A stretch of 64,000 bases of DNA from Candidatus Marinacidobacterium sp. (GTDB taxonomy: Bacteria > Acidobacteriota > Vicinamibacteria > Marinacidobacterales > Marinacidobacteraceae): NCBI GenBank assembly GCA_965204755.1, contig OZ242011.1, positions 3,008,001 through 3,072,000 on the forward strand, given 5' to 3'. Below, piece after piece: positions 2,116 through 58,945 of this stretch. Below the pieces are notes generated by a model, which was not told the origin of the DNA, did not search any database, and saw only the letters and a list, made by a program, of their open reading frames with translations. Both the position numbers and the translations under genes were made by a program. Numbering within the stretch: position 1 is the stretch's first letter; every line of letters begins with the position of its first letter.

Positions 2116-5100
2116 ATGCCCGGAAGGAGGCGCGCCGGCCGGGCGCGGAGGAAGCCCGGAGCGGCCGGGAAGCCGGGCGCGCCGTTCGAGAGGCGACTGA
2201 GCCTCCTCGGTTGGTTGAACGAACAACTCGGTTTCGAGGACAACCGCGAACTCCTGGGGGACCTGAAACACGCGGACGAGGGTTTCGACTCCGGCGCCGG
2301 TCGCAGTCATGTCCTTTCTCGGTTGCGCTCCCGCGCCGTCCGGCCCCGGGTCGCCCTCGCGGACCTCGACCGCTACGACGGGAACATCCGCCGGCGCCTG
2401 GACTCGATCAACCGGGGGCGGAGGCCGCCGGTCCGGTTGCGCTACTTCCAGCATCTGGCGGCGCTCCACACGGAGATCGTCCTCGACCGACAGGCCCGGG
2501 GGCCGGTAGAGTTGTTGCGATCGCTCAACGACTTCGTCCGGCGGAGAAACGCCAAGCGGGTTCCCGGGGAGGCCGCGCTGCCCGACTTCGACCGGGCGGA
2601 CCTGGCGAAACTGGCGTTCTGGATGGCCACGGGCAGCGGCAAGACGCTGATCTTCCACCTGAACTACCTCCAGTATCTCCACTACGCTCGGCGGCCGCCG
2701 GACAACATCGTGCTGATCACTCCGAACGAGGGACTGAGCGAGCAGCATCTTCTCGAACTGGCGGCTTCGGGCATTTCCGCCCGACGCTTCGACGAGGCAG
2801 GCGGATTGTTTCGATCCGGGGCGGACGCCATCCGGGTCATCGAGGTCACGAAACTGGTGGAGGAAAAGCGTGGGGGCGGGGCGAGCGTCCCGGTGGATTA
2901 CTTCGAGGGGGAGAACCTGATCTTCGTGGACGAAGCGCACAAGGGGTCGGGAGGCGAGAAGTGGCGGACGGTGCGGGACCGGCTCGGGGAGACCGGTTTC
3001 ACCTTCGAATACAGCGCGACCTTCGGGCAGGCTCTCGGCGCGGCGCGCAACGAGGCGCTCACCGATGAGTACGGGAAAGCGATCGCCTTCGATTACTCGT
3101 ACCGCTACTTCCACGGTGACGGTTTCGGCAAGGATTTCGGCATCCTGAATCTCAAGGAGTGGGCGGCCGACGAGACTACGGATCTGTTGTTGTTCGGCAA
3201 TCTCCTGTCCTTCTACCAACAGCAGCGCGTCTTCGCCGAGCGCCGCGAGGAAGTCCGGCCCTACGGCATCGACAAACCGCTGTGGGTCTTCGTCGGCGGC
3301 CGCGTGAACGCGGTGTACAGCCGGGACGGGATTCGGCGGAGTGATGTGCTCACGGTGGTCCGCTTCCTCCAGCGCTTCGCTTCGGATCGCCGGTGGGCCG
3401 AGCGCCGACTCGCGCGGCTCCTGGATGGGCGTTCCGGGCTGGTGACGGAGGCGAAGAACGACCTGTTCCACGGCCGCTACGAACACCTTCGCGGTCTTTC
3501 ACTTTCGCCGGAGGAGTTGCGGAGAGACATTCTGAGCCGACTCTTTCATGCGGAAGCCGATGGGAGTCTCCACCTCGCTTCGCTCGGCAACAGCCCCGGA
3601 GAGATCGGGCTGCGTCTCGGTACTTCGGAGAAGTACTTCGGCTTGATCTACATCGGCGATGTCTCGAAGTTCCGGAAACTCGTGGAGGATGACGGGAGTG
3701 GAGTGCGCTGGGAGACCGAGGCCATCGTGGACTCGCTGTTCTCGAACATCGGGGAGGCGGATACGAACATCGAAATTCTCATCGGGGCCAAGAAGTTCAT
3801 GGAGGGTTGGAACAGTTGGCGCGTCTCGAACATGGGACTGCTCAATGTCGGGCGCGGGGAAGGCGCCCAGATCGTTCAACTGTTCGGCAGGGGGGTCCGG
3901 CTGCGAGGCCTGCGGGCCGGGATGAAGCGGAGCAGCGCGGTCACGGGAACGCATCCCCCGGACCTCGGCCTGCTGGAGACCCTGAACATCTTCTCGGTCC
4001 GAGCCGATTACATGGCGCGGTTCCGCGAGTATTTGGAACTGGAGGGAATTCCGGCCGCGGATCCCGTGGTCCTGCCCTTGCCCGTTCGCCGGAACACCGA
4101 GTTCCTGAGGCGCGGTCTTCTCGTGCCGAAGCCGCCGGAGGAGCGGCGTTTCGAACGGGAGAGCGACCTCGTCTTCACGGTGGACACTTCCATTCAGGCA
4201 TGGGTGGACCGATCCCCGCAACTGCAGTGGCTGTCGAGCGGTGACTCGGGAATGAGCGCGGAAGACATCGACACCGAGACGGACATCGAGATACCCGAGG
4301 CGAGTCTGGACATCCTCGACTGGGAGGAGATCTGGCTGAAACTCATCGACTACCGCGAGGAGAGAGGGTGGAGGAACTTGGCGATACCGCCGGAGGTCCC
4401 GCGCCGGATACTCTCCGTCCGCGAGCCTCACCGCCTCTATCGACTCGGCGCGGAGCGTTCCGTCGTGGAACCGCCGTCGTTTGCGGATCGGGAGCGCCTC
4501 CAGGACCTGGTGTTGGACATTCTCCGGAACTACGCCGACCGGTTCTACCGCGCCCACAGCGAGAGTTGGGACACGGGGAATCTCGAACTCGAAGCGCTCA
4601 CCGAGAAGGACGCCAACTTCCGCGACTACACGGTGCGGGTGGAGCGCGAGGAAGTGAAGTTGGCGCGGGACATCGAGGAGTTGATTCGGGAGACGGACGC
4701 GCTATACGAGAGCGCGCGCGGCCGTCTGCCGCGGATCTACTTCGACCGGCACTTGTACCAGCCCCTTCTCCTCGGACAGGCGGAGGGCATTCGGAGCGAT
4801 CCTCCGGGGCTCAACGAGAGCGAGGAGCGGTTCGTGCGCGACTTGCGGCAGTTCTGGACGGACCGGCGCGACGAACTCCCGGAGGAGACCGAGTTGTTCC
4901 TGCTCCGCAATCTCGAGCGCGGTCGCGGGATCGGCTTCTTCGAGGGGCGGGGCTTCTTCCCCGACTTCATCCTCTGGATCGAGAGTCGTTCCGAACAGCG
5001 GATCGTCTTCGTCGAACCTCACGGCATGGTCCACGCAGCGGCTTATGCCAACGACCACAAGGCGCGTCTCTTCCAGGTGCTGGATCGCTTCACCGAGGAG

Positions 5101-47154: not shown

Positions 47155-49344
47155 ATGCCGGAACTCGGCCCGGACACCGAAGTCCGCTTCGTCAAGGGCG
47201 TCGGCGAACGCCGCGCGAAGGCGCTGGCCGAAGCCGGCATCCGCCGGGTCTCCGACCTCCTGCTGCGGCTGCCGTACCGCTACGAGGACCGCAGCGCCGG
47301 CCGCCCGGCGTGCGAGGTCCGGGACGGGGAGTCGGCGTCGGTCGAAGTGGTCGTCGAGTCGCTGCGCGTCCGCCCCACCCGCCGGCGCAACCTGAAGATC
47401 GTCGAACTCCGCGCCCGGGACGACACCGGCCCGGTGCGCGCCACCTGGTTCAACCGGCAGCACCTGAAGCAGGTCCTCCGGCCGGGCCGCCGCCTCGTCC
47501 TCTTCGGCGCCGCCAAGGTCGCCTATCCCGGTGCGCCCCCCGAGTTCCAAAACCCGAAGTACGAACTCATCACCGGTCCCCCGCCGCCCCGGTTCGAATC
47601 CTCGAGCGGGGACGAGCCGCCCGGTCCCGACGCCACCGACTCCGGCCCCACCGACGCCGGCCCCGATCCCCTGCATGTCGGGCGCATCGTCCCCGTCTAT
47701 GAACGCCTCGGCGAGATCCACCCCCGCCAGTTCCGCCGGATCCTCCACGACCTGGTGGAGTCCGGCGCCGGCGCCGAAACGGGCTGCCTCCCGGAGGAAC
47801 TCATCACCCGACTCGCCCTCCCCACGCGAGAAGAAGCCCTCCGGGAAGTCCACTTCCCCGAACCGGACGCGGAACTCGAAGCCCTCGCCGGGCGCCGGTC
47901 ACCGGGACACCGCCGGCTCATCCTCGAGGAGTTCTTCTCCTTCGCCCTCGGCCTCCTGCTGCGCCGCCGGGAAGACCGCACCGGGCGCGCCGGCGGCGGC
48001 GTCTTCCCGGTCAGCGACGCCGTCCGCGGCCTGTTCCGCCGGGTCGTCCCCTTCCGGCTCACCGGCTCGCAGCGGGACACGCTCCGGACGATCGCCCGCG
48101 AGTTCGCCGGCCCGCTCCCCATGCGCCGGCTGCTCCAGGGCGATGTGGGGTCGGGGAAGACCATCGTCGCGGTCGTCGCCGCGCTCATCGTCATCGACAA
48201 CGGGGCGCAGGCGGCGCTCATGGCGCCGACGGAGGTGCTCGCCGAGCAGCACTACGCCACGATCCGGCGCCTGCTGGAGCCCCACCGCATCCGGGTGGCG
48301 CTGCTCACTTCCGGCCTCTCCGCCGCCGACCGCCGGGCCACCCTGACCGCGGTGGCCAGCGGCTGGGCGCAGTTCGTCATCGGCACCCACTCGCTGATCC
48401 AGGAGGGGGCGCAGTTCCGCAACCTGGGTTTCGCGGTCGTGGACGAGCAGCACCGGTTCGGCGTGGAGCAGCGCCAACTGCTGGTCGAACGGGGCGCCGG
48501 CTGCGACCTGCTGGTCATGACCGCGACGCCGATCCCCCGGACGCTGACCATGGCCCTCCACGGCGACCTCGACCTCTCCGAACTCACCGAACTCCCGCCC
48601 GGCCGCCAGCCGATCGAGACGATCGTCCGCAGTTTCGCCGAGTTGGACGGCGTACACGACGCCGTGCGCGAGGAAGTCCGGCGAGGCCGACAGGCGTTCT
48701 ATGTCTGCCCGTTCATCGAGGACTCCGAAGCGGTGGACGGCAGCGGCGTCGAGCGCCGCTTCGCCGAACTCGCCGAAGGGCCGTTCCGCGGCCTGCGGCT
48801 CGACCTGGTCCACGGCCGGGTCCCGGCCGCGCAGCGCGACCGGGTCATGACCGCCTTCGCCACCGGCGAGGTGGATGTGCTGGTCGCGACCACGGTGATC
48901 GAAGTCGGCGTGGACATCCCGAACGCGACGGTCATGGTGGTGGAGAACGCCGAGCGGTTCGGCCTCGCCCAACTCCACCAGTTGCGCGGCCGGGTGGGGC
49001 GCGGGCGGTTCCCGTCCACCGCGGCGCTGGTGCACGGCGACGAACTCACCGAGTCCGCGAAGCGGCGGCTGGAAGTCCTGAAAGAGACCGCCGACGGCTT
49101 CCGCATCGCCGAGGAGGACCTGGCGATCCGCGGGCCGGGCGAGTTCTTCGGCGCCCGCCAGCACGGAGTCCCCCCGTTCCGCGTCGCCGACCTGGAGCGC
49201 GACGCCGAGTTCCTGCGGCAGGCGCGCCGGGAGGCGCAGCGTTTCCTCGACTCCGGCGCCGAGGAGCGGGAGGAGGGGCGGCGCATCCTCGGGGAAGTTC
49301 GCGCCGCCTGGGGCGACCGCTTCGGGTTGACCAAGGGCGGCTGA
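47155..49344 (+). CDS. recG: ATP-dependent DNA helicase RecG
   Basis: QGDVGSGKT, APTEVLAEQH, DEQHRFG, MTATPIPR, QLRGRVGR, DGF.IAEEDL..RGPGE. Confidence 0.97.
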   Translation: MPELGPDTEVRFVKGVGERRAKALAEAGIRRVSDLLLRLPYRYEDRSAGRPACEVRDGESASVEVVVESLRVRPTRRRNLKIVELRARDDTGPVRATWFNRQHLKQVLRPGRRLVLFGAAKVAYPGAPPEFQNPKYELITGPPPPRFESSSGDEPPGPDATDSGPTDAGPDPLHVGRIVPVYERLGEIHPRQFRRILHDLVESGAGAETGCLPEELITRLALPTREEALREVHFPEPDAELEALAGRRSPGHRRLILEEFFSFALGLLLRRREDRTGRAGGGVFPVSDAVRGLFRRVVPFRLTGSQRDTLRTIAREFAGPLPMRRLLQGDVGSGKTIVAVVAALIVIDNGAQAALMAPTEVLAEQHYATIRRLLEPHRIRVALLTSGLSAADRRATLTAVASGWAQFVIGTHSLIQEGAQFRNLGFAVVDEQHRFGVEQRQLLVERGAGCDLLVMTATPIPRTLTMALHGDLDLSELTELPPGRQPIETIVRSFAELDGVHDAVREEVRRGRQAFYVCPFIEDSEAVDGSGVERRFAELAEGPFRGLRLDLVHGRVPAAQRDRVMTAFATGEVDVLVATTVIEVGVDIPNATVMVVENAERFGLAQLHQLRGRVGRGRFPSTAALVHGDELTESAKRRLEVLKETADGFRIAEEDLAIRGPGEFFGARQHGVPPFRVADLERDAEFLRQARREAQRFLDSGAEEREEGRRILGEVRAAWGDRFGLTKGG

Positions 49345-49670
49345 CCCCGGGCATGTGTCTTCGACCCGTGTCTTTCGCGGGAGCGACGCTTCGGACGAGT
49401 CGCCCGCGGGTTCGCGCGGCTCTGCCCATGCGGCTGCTGCCGGGCGATGCCGGGTCGGGGAGGACCGTCTTTACGAAGGACCTCTCGCGTTTGGCTGGGG
49501 CAGGTCCGCGATCCGCTGTCCGGTCATCGCTCGCCGGAAGAAACCGACCGGTTCGGTCTTGCCGGTCACCGGGTCGCGCTCCCCTACCGCTCCGCGGAAT
49601 CGGGCCGCGCCTGCACACCTGAACCGAGGAAGCCGGCGCCGATGTTGATCGTGCGCTATCCTCTGTTTCC

Positions 49671-49804
49671 AAGGGCCGCATCCTACTAGCTTTCCTATAA
49701 AAGGAGTGCCTGGCAACTCCCAGAACAGGGACTCGGCTTGCCGAGCGGCGGACAGTGCGCGGCGTCCGTCGGGCGGCCCCACGGGGACTACCAGGCGCAG
49801 TCCC
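49671..49804. ncRNA. Putative structured RNA, array copy 1
   Basis: GGGCCGC/GCGGCCC long-range helix; hairpins GGAGT-GCCTGGCA-ACTCC, CTCGG-CTTG-CCGAG and GGGACT-ACCAGGCGC-AGTCCC; the two loops are complementary. Confidence 0.55.
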
Positions 49805-50021
49805 TACCCCCGCTTCGGGGTTTGCGAAGGACCTCTCGCGTTTGGCTGAGGCAGGTCCGCGATCCGCTGTCCGGTCATCTCTCGCCGGGAGGAAGCGACC
49901 GGTTCGGCCTTGTCGGTCACCGGGTCGCGTTCCACCACCGCTCCGCGGAATCGAGCCGCGCCTGCACGCCCGAAACGAGGAAGCCGGCGCCGAGGTTGTT
50001 CGTGCGCTATCCTTGGCATCC

Positions 50022-50159
50022 AAGGGCCGCATCCTACTAGCCCTACCGAACGGTTGAGGAGTGCCTGGCAACTCCAAAACAAGGGACTCGGCTTGCCGAG
50101 CGGCGGACAGTGCGCGGCGTCCGTCGGGCGGCCCCACGGGGACTACCAAGCGCAGTCCC
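50022..50159. ncRNA. Putative structured RNA, array copy 2
   Basis: Same stems; loop variant CCAAGC (G>A at 50149). Confidence 0.55.
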
Positions 50160-50375
50160 TACCCCCGCTTCGGGGTTTGCGAAGGACCTCTCGCGTTTGG
50201 CCGAGGCAGGTCCGCGATCCGCTGTCGGGTCATCGCTCGCCGGAACGAACCGATTGGTTCGACCCTGCCGGTCACCGGGTCGCGCTCCGCCACCGACCCG
50301 CGGTATCGAGCCGCGCACGCCCACCCGAACCGAGGAAGATCGCACCGATGTCGATCGTGCGCTACCCTCACGCGC

Positions 50376-50511
50376 AAAGGCCGCATCCTACTAGCTGACC
50401 CAAAAGGTGAGGAGTGCCTGGCTACTCCAAGATCAGGGACTCGGCTTGCCGAGCGGCGGGCAGTCGCGGCGCCCCCGGGCGGCCCCACGGGGACTACCAG
50501 GCGCAGTCCCC
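50376..50511. ncRNA. Putative structured RNA, array copy 3
   Basis: Same stems; compensatory GGGC/GCCC in place of GGAC/GTCC. Confidence 0.55.
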
Positions 50512-50724
50512 ACCCCCGCTTCAGGGTTTGCGAAGGACCTCTCGCGCTTGGCCGAGCAGGTTCGCCAGTTGCTTCTCGGTCATCTCTCGCCGGAAGAAAC
50601 TGATCAGATCGACCTCGTCGGTCGCCGGGTCGCGCTCCACCACCGCTCCGCGGTATCGAGGCCGCCCGCACACCCGAACTGAGGAAGCCGGCGCCGATGT
50701 TGATCGTGCGCTATCCTCACTCGT

Positions 50725-50861
50725 AAGGGCCGCATCCTACTAGCTAACCGAACGGTTGAGGAGTGCCTGGCAACTCCAAGAAAGGGGCTCGGCTTGCCGA
50801 GCGGCGGGCAGTGCGCGGCGTCCGTCGGGCGGCCCCACGGGGACTACCAGGCGCAGTCCCC
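50725..50861. ncRNA. Putative structured RNA, array copy 4 (adjacent to the nuclease stop codon)
   Basis: Same stems; hairpins at 50760-50777 and 50839-50861; ends 9 nt from the gene's TGA. Confidence 0.6.
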
Positions 50862-50870
50862 ACCCCCGCT

Positions 50871-51368
50871 TCAGGGTTTGCGAAGGACCTCTCGCGCTCG
50901 GTCAAGCAGGTTCGCGAGTTGCTGCTCGGTCATCTCTCGCCGGAAGAAACTGATCAGATCGACCTTGTCGGTCACCGGGTCGCGCTCCACCACCGCGAAG
51001 TAGAAAATCCCGTCGACTTCGCCCCACAGGCACAGGCGGTTGTCGAAGGCCTCCGGCGGCCGGTTCGCCGGCGGGCTGGGTCGGAATACGACCCTCGGCG
51101 CTTCCAACAGCGCCGGCAGCCGCCGGTAATCCTCGGTCCCAAGTTCGGGATGGCCCCTCTTCTTCCTCCTGGGTTGTGCGAGCCGTCCATCCTGTTTCTT
51201 CATGATGCGGTCGGGGAGTCGCACCACGGCGGTCCGGGCCCCGATCCAGTCGCGGACTTCGGGGTCCAGCGCGCCGGCGCGCAGGGCGCCCCGGGGTTCG
51301 GCTCGGAACCGGGCGAAGATCGGGCTCTCGAAGACGGAGCGGGCGAGTGTCCCGTTCAGGTCATCCAT
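50871..51368 (-). CDS. Stand-alone PBECR2-like (BECR-fold) putative ribonuclease, 165 aa
   Basis: VVRL...IMKKQ...HPELGTEDYRRLPALLEAP...Y.AVV.......DLISFFR resembles the PBECR2 pattern (recalled, not searched). Confidence 0.65.
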   Translation of the reverse strand: MDDLNGTLARSVFESPIFARFRAEPRGALRAGALDPEVRDWIGARTAVVRLPDRIMKKQDGRLAQPRRKKRGHPELGTEDYRRLPALLEAPRVVFRPSPPANRPPEAFDNRLCLWGEVDGIFYFAVVERDPVTDKVDLISFFRREMTEQQLANLLDRAREVLRKP

Positions 51369-51577
51369 CGGGCCCCGGCCCCGGCCTCTTTCCGGGAAGG
51401 GCGTTCGCCGGCGGGGATGGCCCGCCCGGGTCGGCGCGCGGGGCTCGTTCCGTCCGGCGGTCCGGAGGTTCGATCCGCCGATTACCGCGGCCCCGGCCTC
51501 CGGCGGCGCGAGCGTTCGCGCCTCCCGACGGTGCGGGAGTTCGCGCCTCCGGACATCCGCGTCGTTTGGTTATGGTT

Positions 51578-51698
51578 CCGGGTGGCGCATGTGACACGGT
51601 GAAATTCTCCCGGCCGTAACCGATCCCTTTCGGGATGAGAGTGCTATGTGGGGTTCCCGGCTCCGGCCGGATGGGAGGCCCCACCATGCGCCGCCCGG
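51578..51698. ncRNA. Putative 121-nt multibranched structured RNA next to the 3' end of the second PBECR2-like gene
   Basis: 14-bp closing stem CCGGGTGGCGCATG/CATGCGCCGCCCGG; internal ACGGT/GCCGT, ATCCC-TTTC-GGGAT and GTGGGG/CCCCAC; CTCCC/GGGAG possible pseudoknot. Confidence 0.6.
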
Positions 51699-51710
51699 GT
51701 GGGCAGCGAG

Positions 51711-52361
51711 TCACCACCGGGGGGGAGGTCGCGTCGCCCGTCGCTTGGCGCGTCCGACATCCTTCTCGTGGATCCTCTGGAAGTTCGTGAGGAAGATTTC
51801 GTTGTTCACGGTCTGCTTTATGGCGGCCTTGTAGTGATGGCCTTCGCGCTCTCCGAGGAAGAGAGTGAGATGGCGTCCGCTCGGTTCGGTGATCACCGCT
51901 CCCCCTTCGATGACATCCGGAAGCCGGCGATAGTCGTCGAGCGTGAGGTCCGGGTGGCGAACCACCTGCTTCACTGCGCTTTCCGCTGACAGTCGCACGA
52001 CCCGCGCGGGAGGGAACCCCCCTTCCGGCAGGGGCTCCAAGCCGGCTCGCGCCTCGTCGGTCAGGACCGCAACCGGCAATTCGCCGATTCGCGCCTTGAT
52101 GGCGGCGTCCTCGATCTTTATGAACAGCGCCTTTCCGGCATCCGGCAGGACTTCCCGGTAGGCCTCCACTCGCTCGAAGAACCCGGGGAGGACGGGACTC
52201 CCTTCGCCGAGGAGCCGTCGCACCGTCGCGCGGGCGGTCTCCGGGTCGGTGTTCTCGACCCATTCGAGGAGGGCGAGCAGGGCCGCCGGGCCCCGACCCG
52301 TCCGCGGAGGTGAGGCCGCGGGCGGGGGTCGGCTCCTTCGGCGGGGCGGCGCCGGAGGCAT
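51711..52361 (-). CDS. Second PBECR2-like putative ribonuclease (start uncertain; ATG 52361 chosen)
   Basis: VVRLSAESAVKQ..RHPDLTLDDYRRLPDVIE.G...YKAAIK.T..NEIFLTNFQR; paralogous to 50871-51368 (shared HP.L..(E/D)DYRRLP). Confidence 0.7.
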   Translation of the reverse strand: MPPAPPRRRSRPPPAASPPRTGRGPAALLALLEWVENTDPETARATVRRLLGEGSPVLPGFFERVEAYREVLPDAGKALFIKIEDAAIKARIGELPVAVLTDEARAGLEPLPEGGFPPARVVRLSAESAVKQVVRHPDLTLDDYRRLPDVIEGGAVITEPSGRHLTLFLGEREGHHYKAAIKQTVNNEIFLTNFQRIHEKDVGRAKRRATRPPPRW

Positions 52362-52368
52362 CCGGATG

Positions 52369-53583
52369 TCAGCCGGCGCGGGCGGCCGCGGCGGGCGACT
52401 CCGACTCCGCCGACTCCTCCGCCGGAGGCAGGTCCACGCCGACCCCCAGCGGATGGAGGGCGTCGCCGTCCGCCGTCGGTTCCCGGAGGGCGCGAGCCAC
52501 GACATCGTCCGGGGCGCCGTCCGGGGCATCGTCCGGGGCGCGTTCCCGCGCCGAGTCGGCGGCGAGCAGGACCGGGCGGAGCGGCTCCGACAGCCGGCCC
52601 GCCTCCGGGGCCTGGCGGGAGATGCTGGCGTCGGCGGCCTCCCTGGTCAGGAAGTTCACGAACTCCCGCGAGCCGCCCTTCCAGCCGCTCAGGGTCTCGG
52701 CGAGCGCCATCGGGTGCCGCTCTTCGCGCTCGCCGAAGACGCAGCCGGGGTGGTAGGTCCGCACCGCGTTCCCGAAGACGCTGAACCGCCGTCCCACGCG
52801 GTCGCTCAGGACGAAGGTCATCGGCCCGGTGAGGACCGCGACATGGGCCAGCCCGACGGTCCGCCAGGCCAGGTCGGCGACATCGATGGCCGCGGTCTCC
52901 GGGTCGGTCTCGCCGATCTCCAGGCCGGTGAGGAACACCGGGCGCGTCCGCTCCGGGTCGGAGATCAGGTCGATGAGGCCGGCCACGCTCTCGGCGTCCT
53001 GCACCACCCAGGGCGTCGCGCGGAGCCGCCAGCCGTAGTCGGTCAGCCCCGGGGAGTCGGCCAGCCGGCGGACGATCTCCGGCGCGGCGGCCGTGTGCGC
53101 CGCCCTGCCGGTCAGCAGCGTGGCGGAGAGGCGGGTGCAGTCGGTGGTCTCCACCAGGAAGACCTCGACCCGCCAGGCGGCCCGCGGCCGCCGGCGGCGC
53201 TCCACCGCGGCGCCGAAGCACCGGCCGTCCGGGAACTCCCGCTCCTCGGTGACGACGGCGGGGCGCGCGTTCGGGCGGCGGGGCGGGCCGGCCGCCGTCG
53301 GCGTTTCGGGCCGCGCCGGCGGTTCGACGCGCTGCCCGCGGCCCCGGCGGGGGCCCTCCAGGAAGCGGAGGATGCGGTCCCGCGACGCGGCGAACTCGCC
53401 GCCGCGCCCGTCGCGCGCCACATCGGCGCAGACCGCGGCCGCCGGGGCGAGCGCCGCCCGCCCGGACCGGACGCGGCGCGCCGGGCGGCGGTCAGCCGCG
53501 GGAAGGGGATGCGGCGCCGGCTGGCGGGCCGGGAGGGGCAGGGGATTCGGTCGGGGTTGGGGTAGGGTCGGCGGATGGGGCAT
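52369..53583 (-). CDS. Hypothetical protein with a globular alpha/beta core and low-complexity ends
   Basis: Core LI.DPER.RPV...DLA....GLAHVAVL...VG..FSVF..AVRTY.PG; stop lies 7 nt before the next gene. Confidence 0.6.
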   Translation of the reverse strand: MPHPPTLPQPRPNPLPLPARQPAPHPLPAADRRPARRVRSGRAALAPAAAVCADVARDGRGGEFAASRDRILRFLEGPRRGRGQRVEPPARPETPTAAGPPRRPNARPAVVTEEREFPDGRCFGAAVERRRRPRAAWRVEVFLVETTDCTRLSATLLTGRAAHTAAAPEIVRRLADSPGLTDYGWRLRATPWVVQDAESVAGLIDLISDPERTRPVFLTGLEIGETDPETAAIDVADLAWRTVGLAHVAVLTGPMTFVLSDRVGRRFSVFGNAVRTYHPGCVFGEREERHPMALAETLSGWKGGSREFVNFLTREAADASISRQAPEAGRLSEPLRPVLLAADSARERAPDDAPDGAPDDVVARALREPTADGDALHPLGVGVDLPPAEESAESESPAAAARAG

Positions 53584-56413: not shown

Positions 56414-58945
56414 ATGAGAAACATGTACGCGTGGGTCCCGTGGTTTCGGCAACTCGCCGCACGGATCGCCGAAGGCGGCAAGGAGGGACTCATCGAGCGC
56501 GTCAAGAGCGTGGTGTGGGAGGAAAAGAGTCCAGCCCTTCTGGAGTTCGGCGACAAGTACATTGATCCGCTGTCATTCCTGAACCATCTTGCGTCCGTAG
56601 ATCTGGCGATGACATCCGTCAGCAGCGTGTTCGATGTGGATGCCGAAATTCCCCAAGACGACGACTGGGCGCTCATCTTTCCTACGGTCTTCCACTTGAA
56701 GGCGCCTCTGGGTGAGCAAGAGACCTATGACCCAGACCTTCTGTGGGCTCTCTTCCGGCAGGCCGTCCCGGACAAGGCGAAGATCGACGCGAACACCTTC
56801 GACTCTGTTCTGAACTTGCCGCAGGTGGGCGTCTTCAACCTCACGTCGGCTCTCTGTCTGACCAATGCTCACTCGTTCCTGCCCCTCGGAAAGAAAGCCA
56901 TCGCTCTGGGCAAGAAGGTGCAGACGCTGAGCGGGTTGGGAAAGTGCAAGAAGAAGACATTCACGCTCTCTACCTACGAAGCCATCATGCGCCAAGCCCG
57001 GAAAGCATTCCCCGGGTGCCGCATGTACGAGATCGGGAGGTTCCTGTACGAACACGGATCTTGGGACACAGGGCTCGTCTCCAAGGAATCATCGTCCTTC
57101 CACATCAGCACCAAACTCAAGGGGGACAAGGGGCCGGACTTCTGGAACGAATTCGAGCGGGACAATTCTGTCTGGACGGCTGGCAAGGCGTCCGCGATCG
57201 CATGGGACGTCCCGCTGCCATCGGGAAAGAAGCCCTACCCTGTGACTGAGCCGGAAGCGGGCGACATCATGCTCGTTCGGTGTGGTACCGGGCAGGGTCG
57301 CGGCATCGGGGTTGTCCTGCACAACGATTACGCGAAGGAGGGCGGCCTCCGGCCGAGCAGTCGCATTCATGTGGTCTGGATCAACAAGTCTCGAACCGTT
57401 CTGGCAAAGCCATCACCGAGATTCGCCATGGATCGTGCTGCGAGCGCGGATCGAGGCGCTCTCCCCGGATTTGGGAAGAGCGACGACTACCGGTCGTCCT
57501 TCGATCTGTTTCGCGATCTCGACGTTCCGGTTCCTAACGGGCATCCACTTCCGCGAAGGAAACAGCACTTGAACCAGATCCTCTACGGGCCACCCGGAAC
57601 CGGGAAGACTTGGAACACGGTGGCGTGCGCCGTTTCGATGATTGAAGGGCGCGAAGTTGCAGCGGAAGACCGGGGAGAAGTCAAGAAGCGGTTTGAGGAG
57701 TACCGCAGGGTGGGCCAAGTGGAGATGGTCACCTTCCACCAGAACTACGCCTACGAAGACTTCGTTGAGGGTATTCGCCCGACGGTGGAGGACGCATCCG
57801 CCGAGGGGGTCGGCTATGTGTTGCGTCCCGGTGTCTTTCGCGAAATGGTGGAGCGAGCAGCGCAGAATCTCAGAACATCGCAAACGGTGGAGAAGGACGC
57901 GTGGACGTCTCAGGAAGTCGTTCAGGGGTTCCTTGAGTGGATCAGGAGTGAGACTGCTTCCGGCGGAGCAAAGCGGCTGGCGAAGGGTGCCGGTGGTCGC
58001 GACATCCTCGTGTCGGGCGTGTACGAAAGCCGGGATGGAGACATCGCCGGAGTGCAGCTCGGCGGTACGACAAACCAGAAGCTGTTTCGACGCGTTCTGG
58101 ACCGGGATTACCGTGCCTTTCACGATGGGGGCATCACGGAGTACACGGAAATCGGCCGAACGAGGCCCGGGTCTTCGACATGGCACGGCCAAGCCGTCTA
58201 TTTCTTCGAACTCCTGAAGATGGTGAGGAAGTACCACAAGGATGTGTGGCGCCGGCCGGAGCGGAAGGCGATCGAGCGCAGGAACTTCGTTCTCATCCTC
58301 GATGAGATCAACCGAGGGAACATCGCGCGGATTTTCGGGGAACTCATCACGCTGGTGGAGGAATCCCGACGGATCGGGCGCGGGGATGAGACGAAGGTGA
58401 CGCTGCCAAACTCCGGGGACGAGTTCGGCGTTCCGGAGAACCTGTATCTCATCGGGACCATGAACACGGCGGACCGGTCGATCGCCTTGCTCGACACGGC
58501 GCTTCGGCGAAGGTTCGAGTTCGTGGAGATGATGCCGGACTCGTCGCTCTTGGACCGGGAAGTCGCCGAAGTCCACCTCGGCAGCCTGCTCGATGCCATG
58601 AACGAGCGGATTCGCTTCCTGCGCGACCGGGAACATCAGATCGGCCACACCTACTTCCTCGAAGTGTGCGACCTCGAGGGACTGAGGAGGGTGTTCCAGA
58701 ACCGTATCCTTCCGCTGCTGCAGGAGTACTTCTACGACGACTGGGCGAAGATCGAGGCGGTGCTGGGCAAGAACGGGTTCGTCGAGTCCGTGGAGCCCCC
58801 GCCGGGACTGGCCGGAGGGGACCTCGTGGACGCGGGCGCGAAGTCCTACGAACTGCTGTCGTTCGACGACGGGAAATGGGGAGAGCCGGCGTCATACCGG
58901 AAGATCTACGAGAAACCGGCAGGGGGCGGCGCGAAGGACGAATGA
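56414..58945 (+). CDS. mcrB: McrB-family AAA+ GTPase (type IV restriction)
   Basis: NQILYGPPGTGKT, FHQNYAYEDFVEG, DEINRGN, GTMNTAD.S, DTALRRRF, HQIGH. Confidence 0.92.
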   Translation: MRNMYAWVPWFRQLAARIAEGGKEGLIERVKSVVWEEKSPALLEFGDKYIDPLSFLNHLASVDLAMTSVSSVFDVDAEIPQDDDWALIFPTVFHLKAPLGEQETYDPDLLWALFRQAVPDKAKIDANTFDSVLNLPQVGVFNLTSALCLTNAHSFLPLGKKAIALGKKVQTLSGLGKCKKKTFTLSTYEAIMRQARKAFPGCRMYEIGRFLYEHGSWDTGLVSKESSSFHISTKLKGDKGPDFWNEFERDNSVWTAGKASAIAWDVPLPSGKKPYPVTEPEAGDIMLVRCGTGQGRGIGVVLHNDYAKEGGLRPSSRIHVVWINKSRTVLAKPSPRFAMDRAASADRGALPGFGKSDDYRSSFDLFRDLDVPVPNGHPLPRRKQHLNQILYGPPGTGKTWNTVACAVSMIEGREVAAEDRGEVKKRFEEYRRVGQVEMVTFHQNYAYEDFVEGIRPTVEDASAEGVGYVLRPGVFREMVERAAQNLRTSQTVEKDAWTSQEVVQGFLEWIRSETASGGAKRLAKGAGGRDILVSGVYESRDGDIAGVQLGGTTNQKLFRRVLDRDYRAFHDGGITEYTEIGRTRPGSSTWHGQAVYFFELLKMVRKYHKDVWRRPERKAIERRNFVLILDEINRGNIARIFGELITLVEESRRIGRGDETKVTLPNSGDEFGVPENLYLIGTMNTADRSIALLDTALRRRFEFVEMMPDSSLLDREVAEVHLGSLLDAMNERIRFLRDREHQIGHTYFLEVCDLEGLRRVFQNRILPLLQEYFYDDWAKIEAVLGKNGFVESVEPPPGLAGGDLVDAGAKSYELLSFDDGKWGEPASYRKIYEKPAGGGAKDE

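Follow-up and report, generated by a model that had tools for sequence, protein, structure and literature searches.

A structured RNA family with a covarying pseudoknot directly downstream of MuF-C/PBECR-like genes: a possible RNA antitoxin or immunity factor

Here we have analysed a gene and the structured RNA directly downstream of it in Candidatus Marinacidobacterium sp. (Acidobacteriota; assembly GCA_965204755.1, contig OZ242011.1), within a stretch of 64,000 nucleotides (positions 3,008,001 to 3,072,000 of the contig) that we refer to as the window and whose G+C content is 72%. The gene, paralog 2, is an open reading frame (ORF) of 216 codons that runs from 52361 to 51711 on the minus strand, includes HPDLTLDDYRRLP and ends in a stop codon at 51711-51713. 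The original prediction had placed a 121-nt element 12 nt past the end of this ORF, and it was right: the element, hereafter the class-2 RNA, starts at 51698 and ends at 51578, with a conserved core, from P1 to P1, at 51584-51692. The parts of this gene-RNA pair are listed below in window numbering, the helices being given on the gene-sense (minus) strand.

51711..52361, minus strand: paralog 2 ORF, a standalone MuF-C (MuF C-terminal)/PBECR-like protein of 216 aa (translation, codon-position GC, homologues)
51578..51698, minus strand: class-2 structured RNA, single copy (fold and covariation; 132.5 bits with covariance model R1)
51692-51685 with 51591-51584, minus strand: P1, the closing stem
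51684-51679 with 51653-51648, minus strand: P2 (GUGGGG/CCCCAC), which bears the inner hairpin P2a
51670-51666 with 51661-51657, minus strand: P2a hairpin
51635-51632 with 51627-51624, minus strand: P3 hairpin
51617-51614 with 51599-51596, minus strand: P4 (ACGG/CCGU)
51677-51673 with 51611-51607, minus strand: pseudoknot CUCCC/GGGAG of 5 bp, between the P2 internal loop and the P4 loop

The fold of the class-2 RNA is under selection. The single sequence folds with z = -2.53 in the minus and -1.65 in the plus orientation, and the true support for the fold is covariation rather than this single-sequence result. Among 13 distinct copies in the source genome, 95.7% of cells are paired versus 34-50% in slid controls, with four of the five pseudoknot pairs compensated; 40 distinct copies from seven related genomes reach 97% versus 37-55%, with the pseudoknot 99% paired and compensatory changes in four of its five pairs; and 64 distinct metagenome copies (49-73% G+C) reach 92.8% versus 36-59%, with compensatory changes in 7/8 pairs of P1, 4/4 of P3 and 4/5 of the pseudoknot. 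The three inner helices and the CTCCC/GGGAG pseudoknot that had been predicted are thus borne out by compensatory changes in the sets of 40 and 64 copies; since P4 and most of P2 are invariant, covariation neither supports nor contradicts these two. The closing stem of 14 bp that was originally proposed is present, but its G-U pair, as read on the plus strand, turns into a C-A mismatch on the RNA strand, and only the inner 8 bp are conserved. Furthermore, some U-G pairs are compatible with the gene-sense strand only (pair 13-131 is UG in 9 of 13 copies, pair 32-215 in 18). The loop-loop pairing takes at least seven different pair sets among the 13 source-genome copies, P3 is highly variable in length, many unpaired nucleotides are invariant, and the conservation extends across copies of 47% to 74% GC. 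The class-2 RNA is a widespread structured family of ~125 nt that comprises P1, P2 with or without P2a, P3, P4 and a loop-loop pseudoknot.

Covariance-model searches against Rfam 15 matched no family at the gathering score in the window and 15 metagenome loci, nor at E <= 1 in five loci; at E <= 10, the surroundings of the element gave two chance-level matches only, both on the opposite strand. A blastn search of 50,697 phage records with the window copy and one viral copy found no match, and neither did one of E. coli genomes and plasmids with the viral copy L070. Near the class-2 RNA in the window there is no U-tract or terminator-like site, and the interval between paralog 2 and the RNA holds no promoter-like or terminator-like site and no ORF. 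A peptide-coding reading of the element was rejected by inspection, as its helices covary and the length of P3 differs widely between copies, and an integron attC reading was set aside by eye, the element being multi-branched with a pseudoknot. About 12-20 nt past the last helix, both RNA classes of the source genome (the second, class 1, is described below) bear a UAGCGC-like tail (window 51570-51583); most metagenome class-2 copies keep UAG or UAUAG past the last helix, and in many a purine-rich run precedes P1. These tails and runs may be processing or recognition sites.

The upstream ORF has coding-like GC at codon positions 1/2/3 (0.74/0.52/0.79), its third-position GC lying below that of neighbouring host genes (at least 0.9). 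Paralog 2 matched no Pfam model even at E <= 10, and no PHROG match was obtained for it, for its neighbouring paralog (paralog 1) or for the 404-aa ORF described below. A word-indexed search returned 12 close homologues, and a profile search of 1.84 billion representatives gave 616 matches at E <= 0.001. When 32 of these were scanned against Pfam, Phage_Mu_F lay N-terminal to the matched domain in 21, one was fused to a pre-toxin PT-TG domain, weak PBECR3, LPD13 and MuF_C matches were present, and a single protein (P0061) passed the PBECR3 cut-off (30.4 versus 30 bits). With the PBECR models of Pfam (PF18810 PBECR2, PF18812 PBECR3 and PF18819 MuF_C) and a threshold of E <= 0.05, PBECR3 was matched weakly by 12 of 73 aligned family members (best E 3e-4) and PBECR2 by one (E 2.7e-5). 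The specific label PBECR2 in the original prediction is therefore not upheld, paralog 2 itself having no Pfam match. The nearest named ESM Atlas clusters to paralog 2 are PBECR2, PBECR3 and MuF_C (0.90-0.93).

Structure prediction adds to this picture. The AlphaFold 2 (AF2) model of paralog 2 (predicted local distance difference test score, pLDDT, 88.4) has a helical N-terminal half (residues ~25-110) followed at ~120-210 by a helix and four strands (helix 126-135, strands 155-198). The family profile found chance-level matches only among PDB chains (E >= 0.14). With VIA-align, BECR/RelE-superfamily toxin folds make up about 14 of the 20 best chains, including CdiA-CT, BrnT, colicin D and E5, RelE, YoeB and ParE, at a Z of only 3-4.7, a range that, by the tool's own warning, may reflect a common arrangement. 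The conserved residues are K131, Q132, H136, D143-Y-R-R146 and T184; across 14 sequences H136 is invariant and K131, Q132 and T184 nearly so, and H136, K131 and Q132 are kept at >= 90% across 73 sequences. PBECR domains are described as having a site of His plus Thr/Ser (Iyer et al., 2017; PMC5512222), which the conservation of H136 and T184 matches, and the domain occurs both solo and fused to MuF/portal domains of phages, as is typical of PBECR domains. Judged from these homologies, paralog 2 represents the MuF C-terminal, PBECR-like domain in solo form, and we infer that it is a putative metal-independent BECR-type endoribonuclease.

The association of gene and RNA recurs throughout the source genome. 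In its 3.98 Mb, covariance model R1 and BLAST locate 13 class-2 copies, single or in arrays; besides the copy in the window these lie, in genome coordinates, as follows.

2824368-2825498: class-2 array of five, starting directly after a paralogous gene
3087850-3088744: class-2 array of four (array B), starting directly after a paralogous gene
1990488-1990840: two class-2 copies
3092286-3092423: one orphan class-2 copy (L002)

The orphan follows a 1,113-codon ORF, whose last 476 residues have no Pfam match, 3.5 kb from array B. Eight ORFs in the source genome match the family profile, and seven of them have a structured RNA 0-6 nt past the stop codon: class 2 in three (0-1 nt) and class 1 in four (1-6 nt). 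This agrees with the general rule that had been proposed, a nuclease-family gene with an RNA adjacent on its 3' side, and the pairing is indeed regular rather than coincidental. In a maximum-likelihood tree, the four proteins with a class-1 RNA group together as a single clade (100/98), nested within the diversity of those with class 2, which fits cognate partners that have diverged.

Across 61 related genomes, the protein was found in eight and the class-2 RNA in seven, all within one family. A family gene stands upstream of the RNA in six of the seven RNA-bearing genomes (the source genome, G000, and G001, G014, G021, G024 and G027), and in G021, G024 and G027 the RNA starts ~20-25 nt past the gene match; in the seventh, G007, the RNA is present and no family gene was found. 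The sister genome G001 has 18 of its 34 class-2 copies in five loci headed by a family gene, with arrays of up to six. Array copies, in arrays of 4-6, are separated by ~65-390 nt. Among 150 other genomes sampled across the phylum, one had a class-2 match.

One motif pattern was applied to metagenomes and gave more than 118 stretches. Among the 80 that were fetched, R1 matched 67 sites, spread over 66 loci, and the samples with the RNA include soil, sludge, gut and marine ones. Ten of the 67 sites have too little upstream DNA to judge, and in 21 of the 57 evaluable copies a family ORF ends 0-46 nt upstream. The neighbours of orphan copies are mixed, including Exo_endo_phos genes (4 loci) and a ProB-like kinase, and many of them are of kinds usual in mobile or conflict elements (Gp49/HigB-like, Mor, NusG-like, Fic, RHS repeats, rve integrase). 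About 20 near-identical orphan copies on soil contigs share the pseudoknot arm GGGACUUGC. One low-G+C contig, L207, carries two divergent class-2 variants 290 nt apart (1462-1583 and 1871-1982), the second of which resembles the variant of viral contig L168 in that GAGGG/CCCUC replaces GUGGGG/CCCCAC.

The same pairing is seen in Mu-like phages. Another motif pattern found 105 stretches in IMG/VR, 80 of which were fetched and then scored by R1, with seven reaching 80-92 bits. In six of the seven, the RNA begins at the stop codon of an ORF of ~200-440 aa that matches the family profile; in the seventh (L089), the family ORF ends 179 nt upstream. One MuF-type ORF (L090) is cut by the contig end, and Phage_Mu_F was present in all four of the seven upstream ORFs that were scanned against Pfam. 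Since all seven strong viral copies come after a MuF-type ORF, the statement in the original prediction that similar sequence follows the MuF genes of Mu-like phages was right. In L070, Portal_Mu precedes MuF, and the RNA behind MuF is followed, in this order, by the genes for a Mu-like protease, a small virion protein and the gpT capsid protein. Alteromonadaceae phage B23 (L173, KY939598.1) has a MuF that is 76% identical to that of L070; when B23 3790-4064 is compared with L070 2490-2932, the RNA is missing from B23 as a clean indel between the F and I genes, and the B23 MuF domain is also without the K-Q...H motif. A search for relatives in viral contigs gave five loci, two of which were scanned by R1: L168 (47% G+C) has a weak class-2 match in which P1 and P2 are compensated by eye, and L172 has no class-2 RNA by R1. 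The catalytic His is kept in 28 of the 31 proteins that precede a class-2 RNA. Gene and RNA are found together in distant hosts as well as in Mu-like phages.

In the window, paralog 2 and its RNA stand beside a second gene-RNA module, carrying the class-1 RNA, and a longer ORF.

50871..51368, minus strand: paralog 1, 165 aa from the first ATG, of the clade carrying class-1 RNA
49470..50870, minus strand: class-1 array of four ~355-nt units (sequence, BLAST, consensus fold)
52369..53583, minus strand: 404-aa ORF ending 7 nt before the start of paralog 2, with a third-position GC (GC3) of 0.94

The two paralogs match each other at E = 5e-5 by tblastn, and paralog 1 matches the family profile at E = 3e-32. 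Each array unit consists of a class-1 structured RNA and then a duplicate of the final ~130 nt of the paralog-1 gene; the duplications thus took the gene end along. These copies of the gene's 3' end are 85-95% identical (window 49470-50990, minus strand), and the array looks like RNA amplification rather than stacked different toxin tips. The class-1 RNA is itself structured, with six compensated pairs in the consensus fold of 12 copies. The claim that the element past paralog 2 has no obvious similarity to this array element holds by BLAST, but by eye a GUGGGGCC stretch and the 3' UAGCGC tail are common to both. Just downstream of one class-1 RNA elsewhere in the genome (G000:C1:3895515-3895745, L298), ~225 nt form a dispersed repeat with ~100 BLAST matches genome-wide at 72-97% identity, unrelated to either RNA class.

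The 404-aa ORF, whose codon bias resembles that of the host, is possibly co-transcribed with paralog 2. It has no Pfam match, and it has one distant paralog (30% identical) elsewhere in the genome and none beside other gene-RNA loci; its candidacy as the missing N-terminal half of a split gene was rejected, no relative of it standing beside other paralogs. The long open frame before the gene of array B translates to an Arg/Pro-rich low-complexity sequence. Both modules and the 404-aa ORF occupy a 4.3-kb gap that extends from recG (47155-49344) to an rsmD-like methyltransferase gene, followed by a coaD-like gene, and family scans found no phage genes in this region. Farther along, an 843-aa ORF (window 56414-58945, plus strand) has an AAA_5 (dynein-related/McrB-type) ATPase domain and a GC3 of 0.77, below its neighbours; it could represent a defence-type gene, acquired horizontally, near the gene-RNA island.

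The reading that we tentatively favour, at a little short of an even chance, is that the class-2 RNA acts as an antitoxin or immunity factor against a BECR-type RNase. An RNA on the gene-sense strand 0-46 nt past the stop codon would be the cognate partner of the upstream MuF-C/PBECR-like protein; transcribed together with its gene, it would bind the predicted RNase and hold it inactive, in the manner of a type III toxin-antitoxin antitoxin or of an RNA 'immunity' factor. Tandem amplification into arrays of 4-6 would raise the RNA dose, the RNA of Mu-like phages would shield the phage-producing cell against the RNase domain of MuF, a virion protein, and orphan copies would act as stand-alone immunity. 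A specific protein-RNA partnership is suggested by the fixed orientation, the near-zero spacing and the selection on the RNA fold, as well as by conservation from phages to chromosomal solo genes and by the presence of a different RNA in the sister protein clade. Within such a partnership, we prefer an antitoxin or immunity role because the protein has affinities to a toxin superfamily, because there is no ORF for a protein immunity factor, because the RNA is amplified into arrays and because B23 has lost the RNA along with the active site. A broader version, a new and widespread kind of RNA-based immunity in which at least two structured RNA classes (~125-170 nt) would each neutralise a cognate BECR-fold RNase domain, both chromosomal and in virion MuF, and orphans would shield against injected RNase domains, is doubtful.

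Several observations weigh against an antitoxin or immunity role. With the RNA in the 3' untranslated region, each mRNA would supply a single copy of it, an unfavourable ratio for an antitoxin. In known type III systems the antitoxin is encoded ahead of the toxin gene as short, abutting RNA repeats, and a terminator separates the two, whereas here the RNA is downstream of the gene, is single at the locus in the window, and in arrays has its copies separated by spacers. The RNase assignment is weak, with a VIA-align Z of at most 4.7, nothing at E <= 0.001 in a Foldseek search of the PDB with the AF2 model, and no Pfam match. The presence of an active site and that of an RNA agree only in part: B23 fits antitoxin logic, whereas L100 and L234, which retain the RNA although the protein lacks the His, do not, nor does the family ORF at genome 1183765-1185057, which has an intact motif and neither RNA. 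By R1, phage POA1180 is without a class-2 RNA, as is L017 (a Balneola metagenome-assembled genome), the only distant relative found in a search of genome contigs. The class-2 RNA, furthermore, is not exclusive to family genes: no family gene lies directly upstream of 3 of the 13 source-genome copies (loci C and D), 16 of the 34 copies in G001 are away from family genes, and 36 of the 57 evaluable metagenome copies have none upstream.

Alternatively, the RNA could be a non-inhibitory partner in a ribonucleoprotein (RNP), serving as cofactor, scaffold or cargo of the MuF-C/PBECR-like domain for assembly, delivery or targeting; it could, for example, be packaged with MuF in the capsid, or form homo-oligomers by intermolecular loop-loop pairing. 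The evidence of linkage and co-diversification is equal for an RNP and for an antitoxin, the RNA adjoins the portal and MuF genes of Mu-like phages, and the loop-loop complementarity varies freely, covariation being blind to whether pairing is intra- or intermolecular. Iyer et al. suggest that inactive MuF-C domains bind RNA (PMC5512222), and the persistence of the RNA with a His-less domain in L100 and L234 fits that suggestion. Standalone genes and RNA arrays, however, also occupy non-phage chromosomal sites such as recG-rsmD, where there is no capsid, orphan copies are common, and B23 does without the RNA; we regard a non-inhibitory RNP as unlikely. A cis-acting element at the mRNA 3' end, whether a stabiliser against exonucleases, a processing signal, a self-cleaving ribozyme or a terminator substitute, would require no specific tie to the activity of the protein and would explain both why the RNA is always directly 3' of an ORF on the sense strand and why it also follows unrelated genes (Exo_endo_phos in 4 loci, the ProB-like kinase and others). 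In L070, moreover, the RNA closes the portal-MuF transcription unit, ahead of an intergenic stretch conserved with B23, and the many invariant unpaired nucleotides are ribozyme-like. Such a role is nonetheless distinctly improbable: U-tracts and terminator-like sites are absent, Rfam offers no ribozyme or other family that matches even at E <= 1, tandem arrays of 4-6 make little sense as a 3'-end signal, and the sister protein clade, which has another RNA in the corresponding position, speaks for partner specificity.

It is very improbable that the class-2 RNA is a selfish dispersed repeat, like a miniature inverted-repeat transposable element (MITE) or repetitive extragenic palindrome (REP) or a small mobile RNA-level element, that inserts or persists after family genes. 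Its dispersal in many copies (13 in the source genome; 34 in G001, 16 of them away from family genes), its patchy distribution (one of 150 other phylum genomes sampled), the clean presence/absence indel between related phages and the potential of P1 to double as a terminal inverted repeat would all suit a mobile repeat. On the other hand, the internal helices and the pseudoknot are under selection and the sequence is conserved across 47% to 74% GC, which is unexpected for a DNA-level repeat, the orientation and the distance to the stop codon of family genes are fixed, and no known repeat or Rfam family matches.

The firm part of this work is a new RNA family that has no Rfam match and a covarying pseudoknot. 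In the literature that we searched on PBECR, MuF, RNA motifs, type III toxin-antitoxin systems and non-coding RNA (ncRNA) we found no description of an RNA beside MuF/PBECR genes, although two genome-language-model preprints of 2026 may list it within unnamed clusters of their supplements. If the RNA neutralises or partners the RNase domain, the BECR/PBECR superfamily, for which the known inhibitors are proteins, would gain its first described RNA counterpart, and the pair would amount to a type III-like system in which toxin fold and RNA fold are both new and the gene order is inverted. The C-terminal domain of MuF, a common head protein of tailed phages, has so far lacked an explanation and would then acquire a role. 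Were the RNA-immunity reading true, protein-RNA toxin-antitoxin biology would extend to polymorphic toxins and phage effectors. The matched pairs offered by two RNA classes and sister protein clades are directly testable, and orthogonal protein-RNA pairs may serve as tools.

It is worth setting the gene-RNA pairs beside known systems. The ncRNA of UG27 reverse transcriptases likewise forms variable tandem arrays of conserved structure beside a prophage-borne conflict gene (bioRxiv 10.64898/2026.09.22.753630). No reverse transcriptase, however, is present at the gene-RNA loci, and RNA and protein are both different. Mu-gpT-DE and other phage-associated RNA motifs were reportedly described by Weinberg and colleagues in 2017, and Rfam 15 is said to contain the motifs of that study. 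Like Mu-gpT-DE, the class-2 RNA is a conserved structured RNA directly downstream of a Mu-like head gene; it follows MuF, however, and not gpT, and no Rfam 15 model matched it. The prohead (packaging) RNA of phi29, for which an Rfam family exists, is a phage-encoded structured RNA whose molecules pair loop to loop with one another at the portal. The class-2 RNA resembles it in size, in covarying loop-loop complementarity and in a link to head/portal functions, but has no Rfam match and occurs also with standalone genes outside phages and in arrays.

On the protein side, MuF polymorphic toxins (Jamet et al., 2017; PMC5576092) and the PBECR domains of phage polyvalent proteins (Iyer et al., 2017; PMC5512222) share both superfamily and architecture with the family described here, namely a MuF N-domain with a C-terminal PBECR-like domain, solo versions included (PMC5512222). 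For BECR-Tox3/DUF6883 fused to Phage_Mu_F, a downstream DUF4926 protein has been proposed as the immunity factor (bioRxiv 10.64898/2026.08.28.747851). Here an RNA, not an ORF, lies downstream of the toxin domain, and the parts of PMC5512222 and bioRxiv 10.64898/2026.08.28.747851 that we draw on mention no associated RNA. Relative to type III toxin-antitoxin systems (ToxIN, CptIN, TenpIN), the affinities of the protein are different, being to BECR/PBECR, with no ToxN/AbiQ, CptN or TenpN match in the Pfam scan. The repeat of ToxI is ~36 nt long, whereas the unit here is ~125 nt with four helices, in spacer-separated copies and with no terminator-like site nearby. Those systems nevertheless join an endoribonuclease to a co-transcribed, pseudoknotted and repeatable RNA in phages and defence-type loci (PMC3401426, PMC5086642, PMC13682666), and the class-2 RNA is likewise pseudoknotted, its loop-loop helix being 99-100% paired, and tandemly repeatable.

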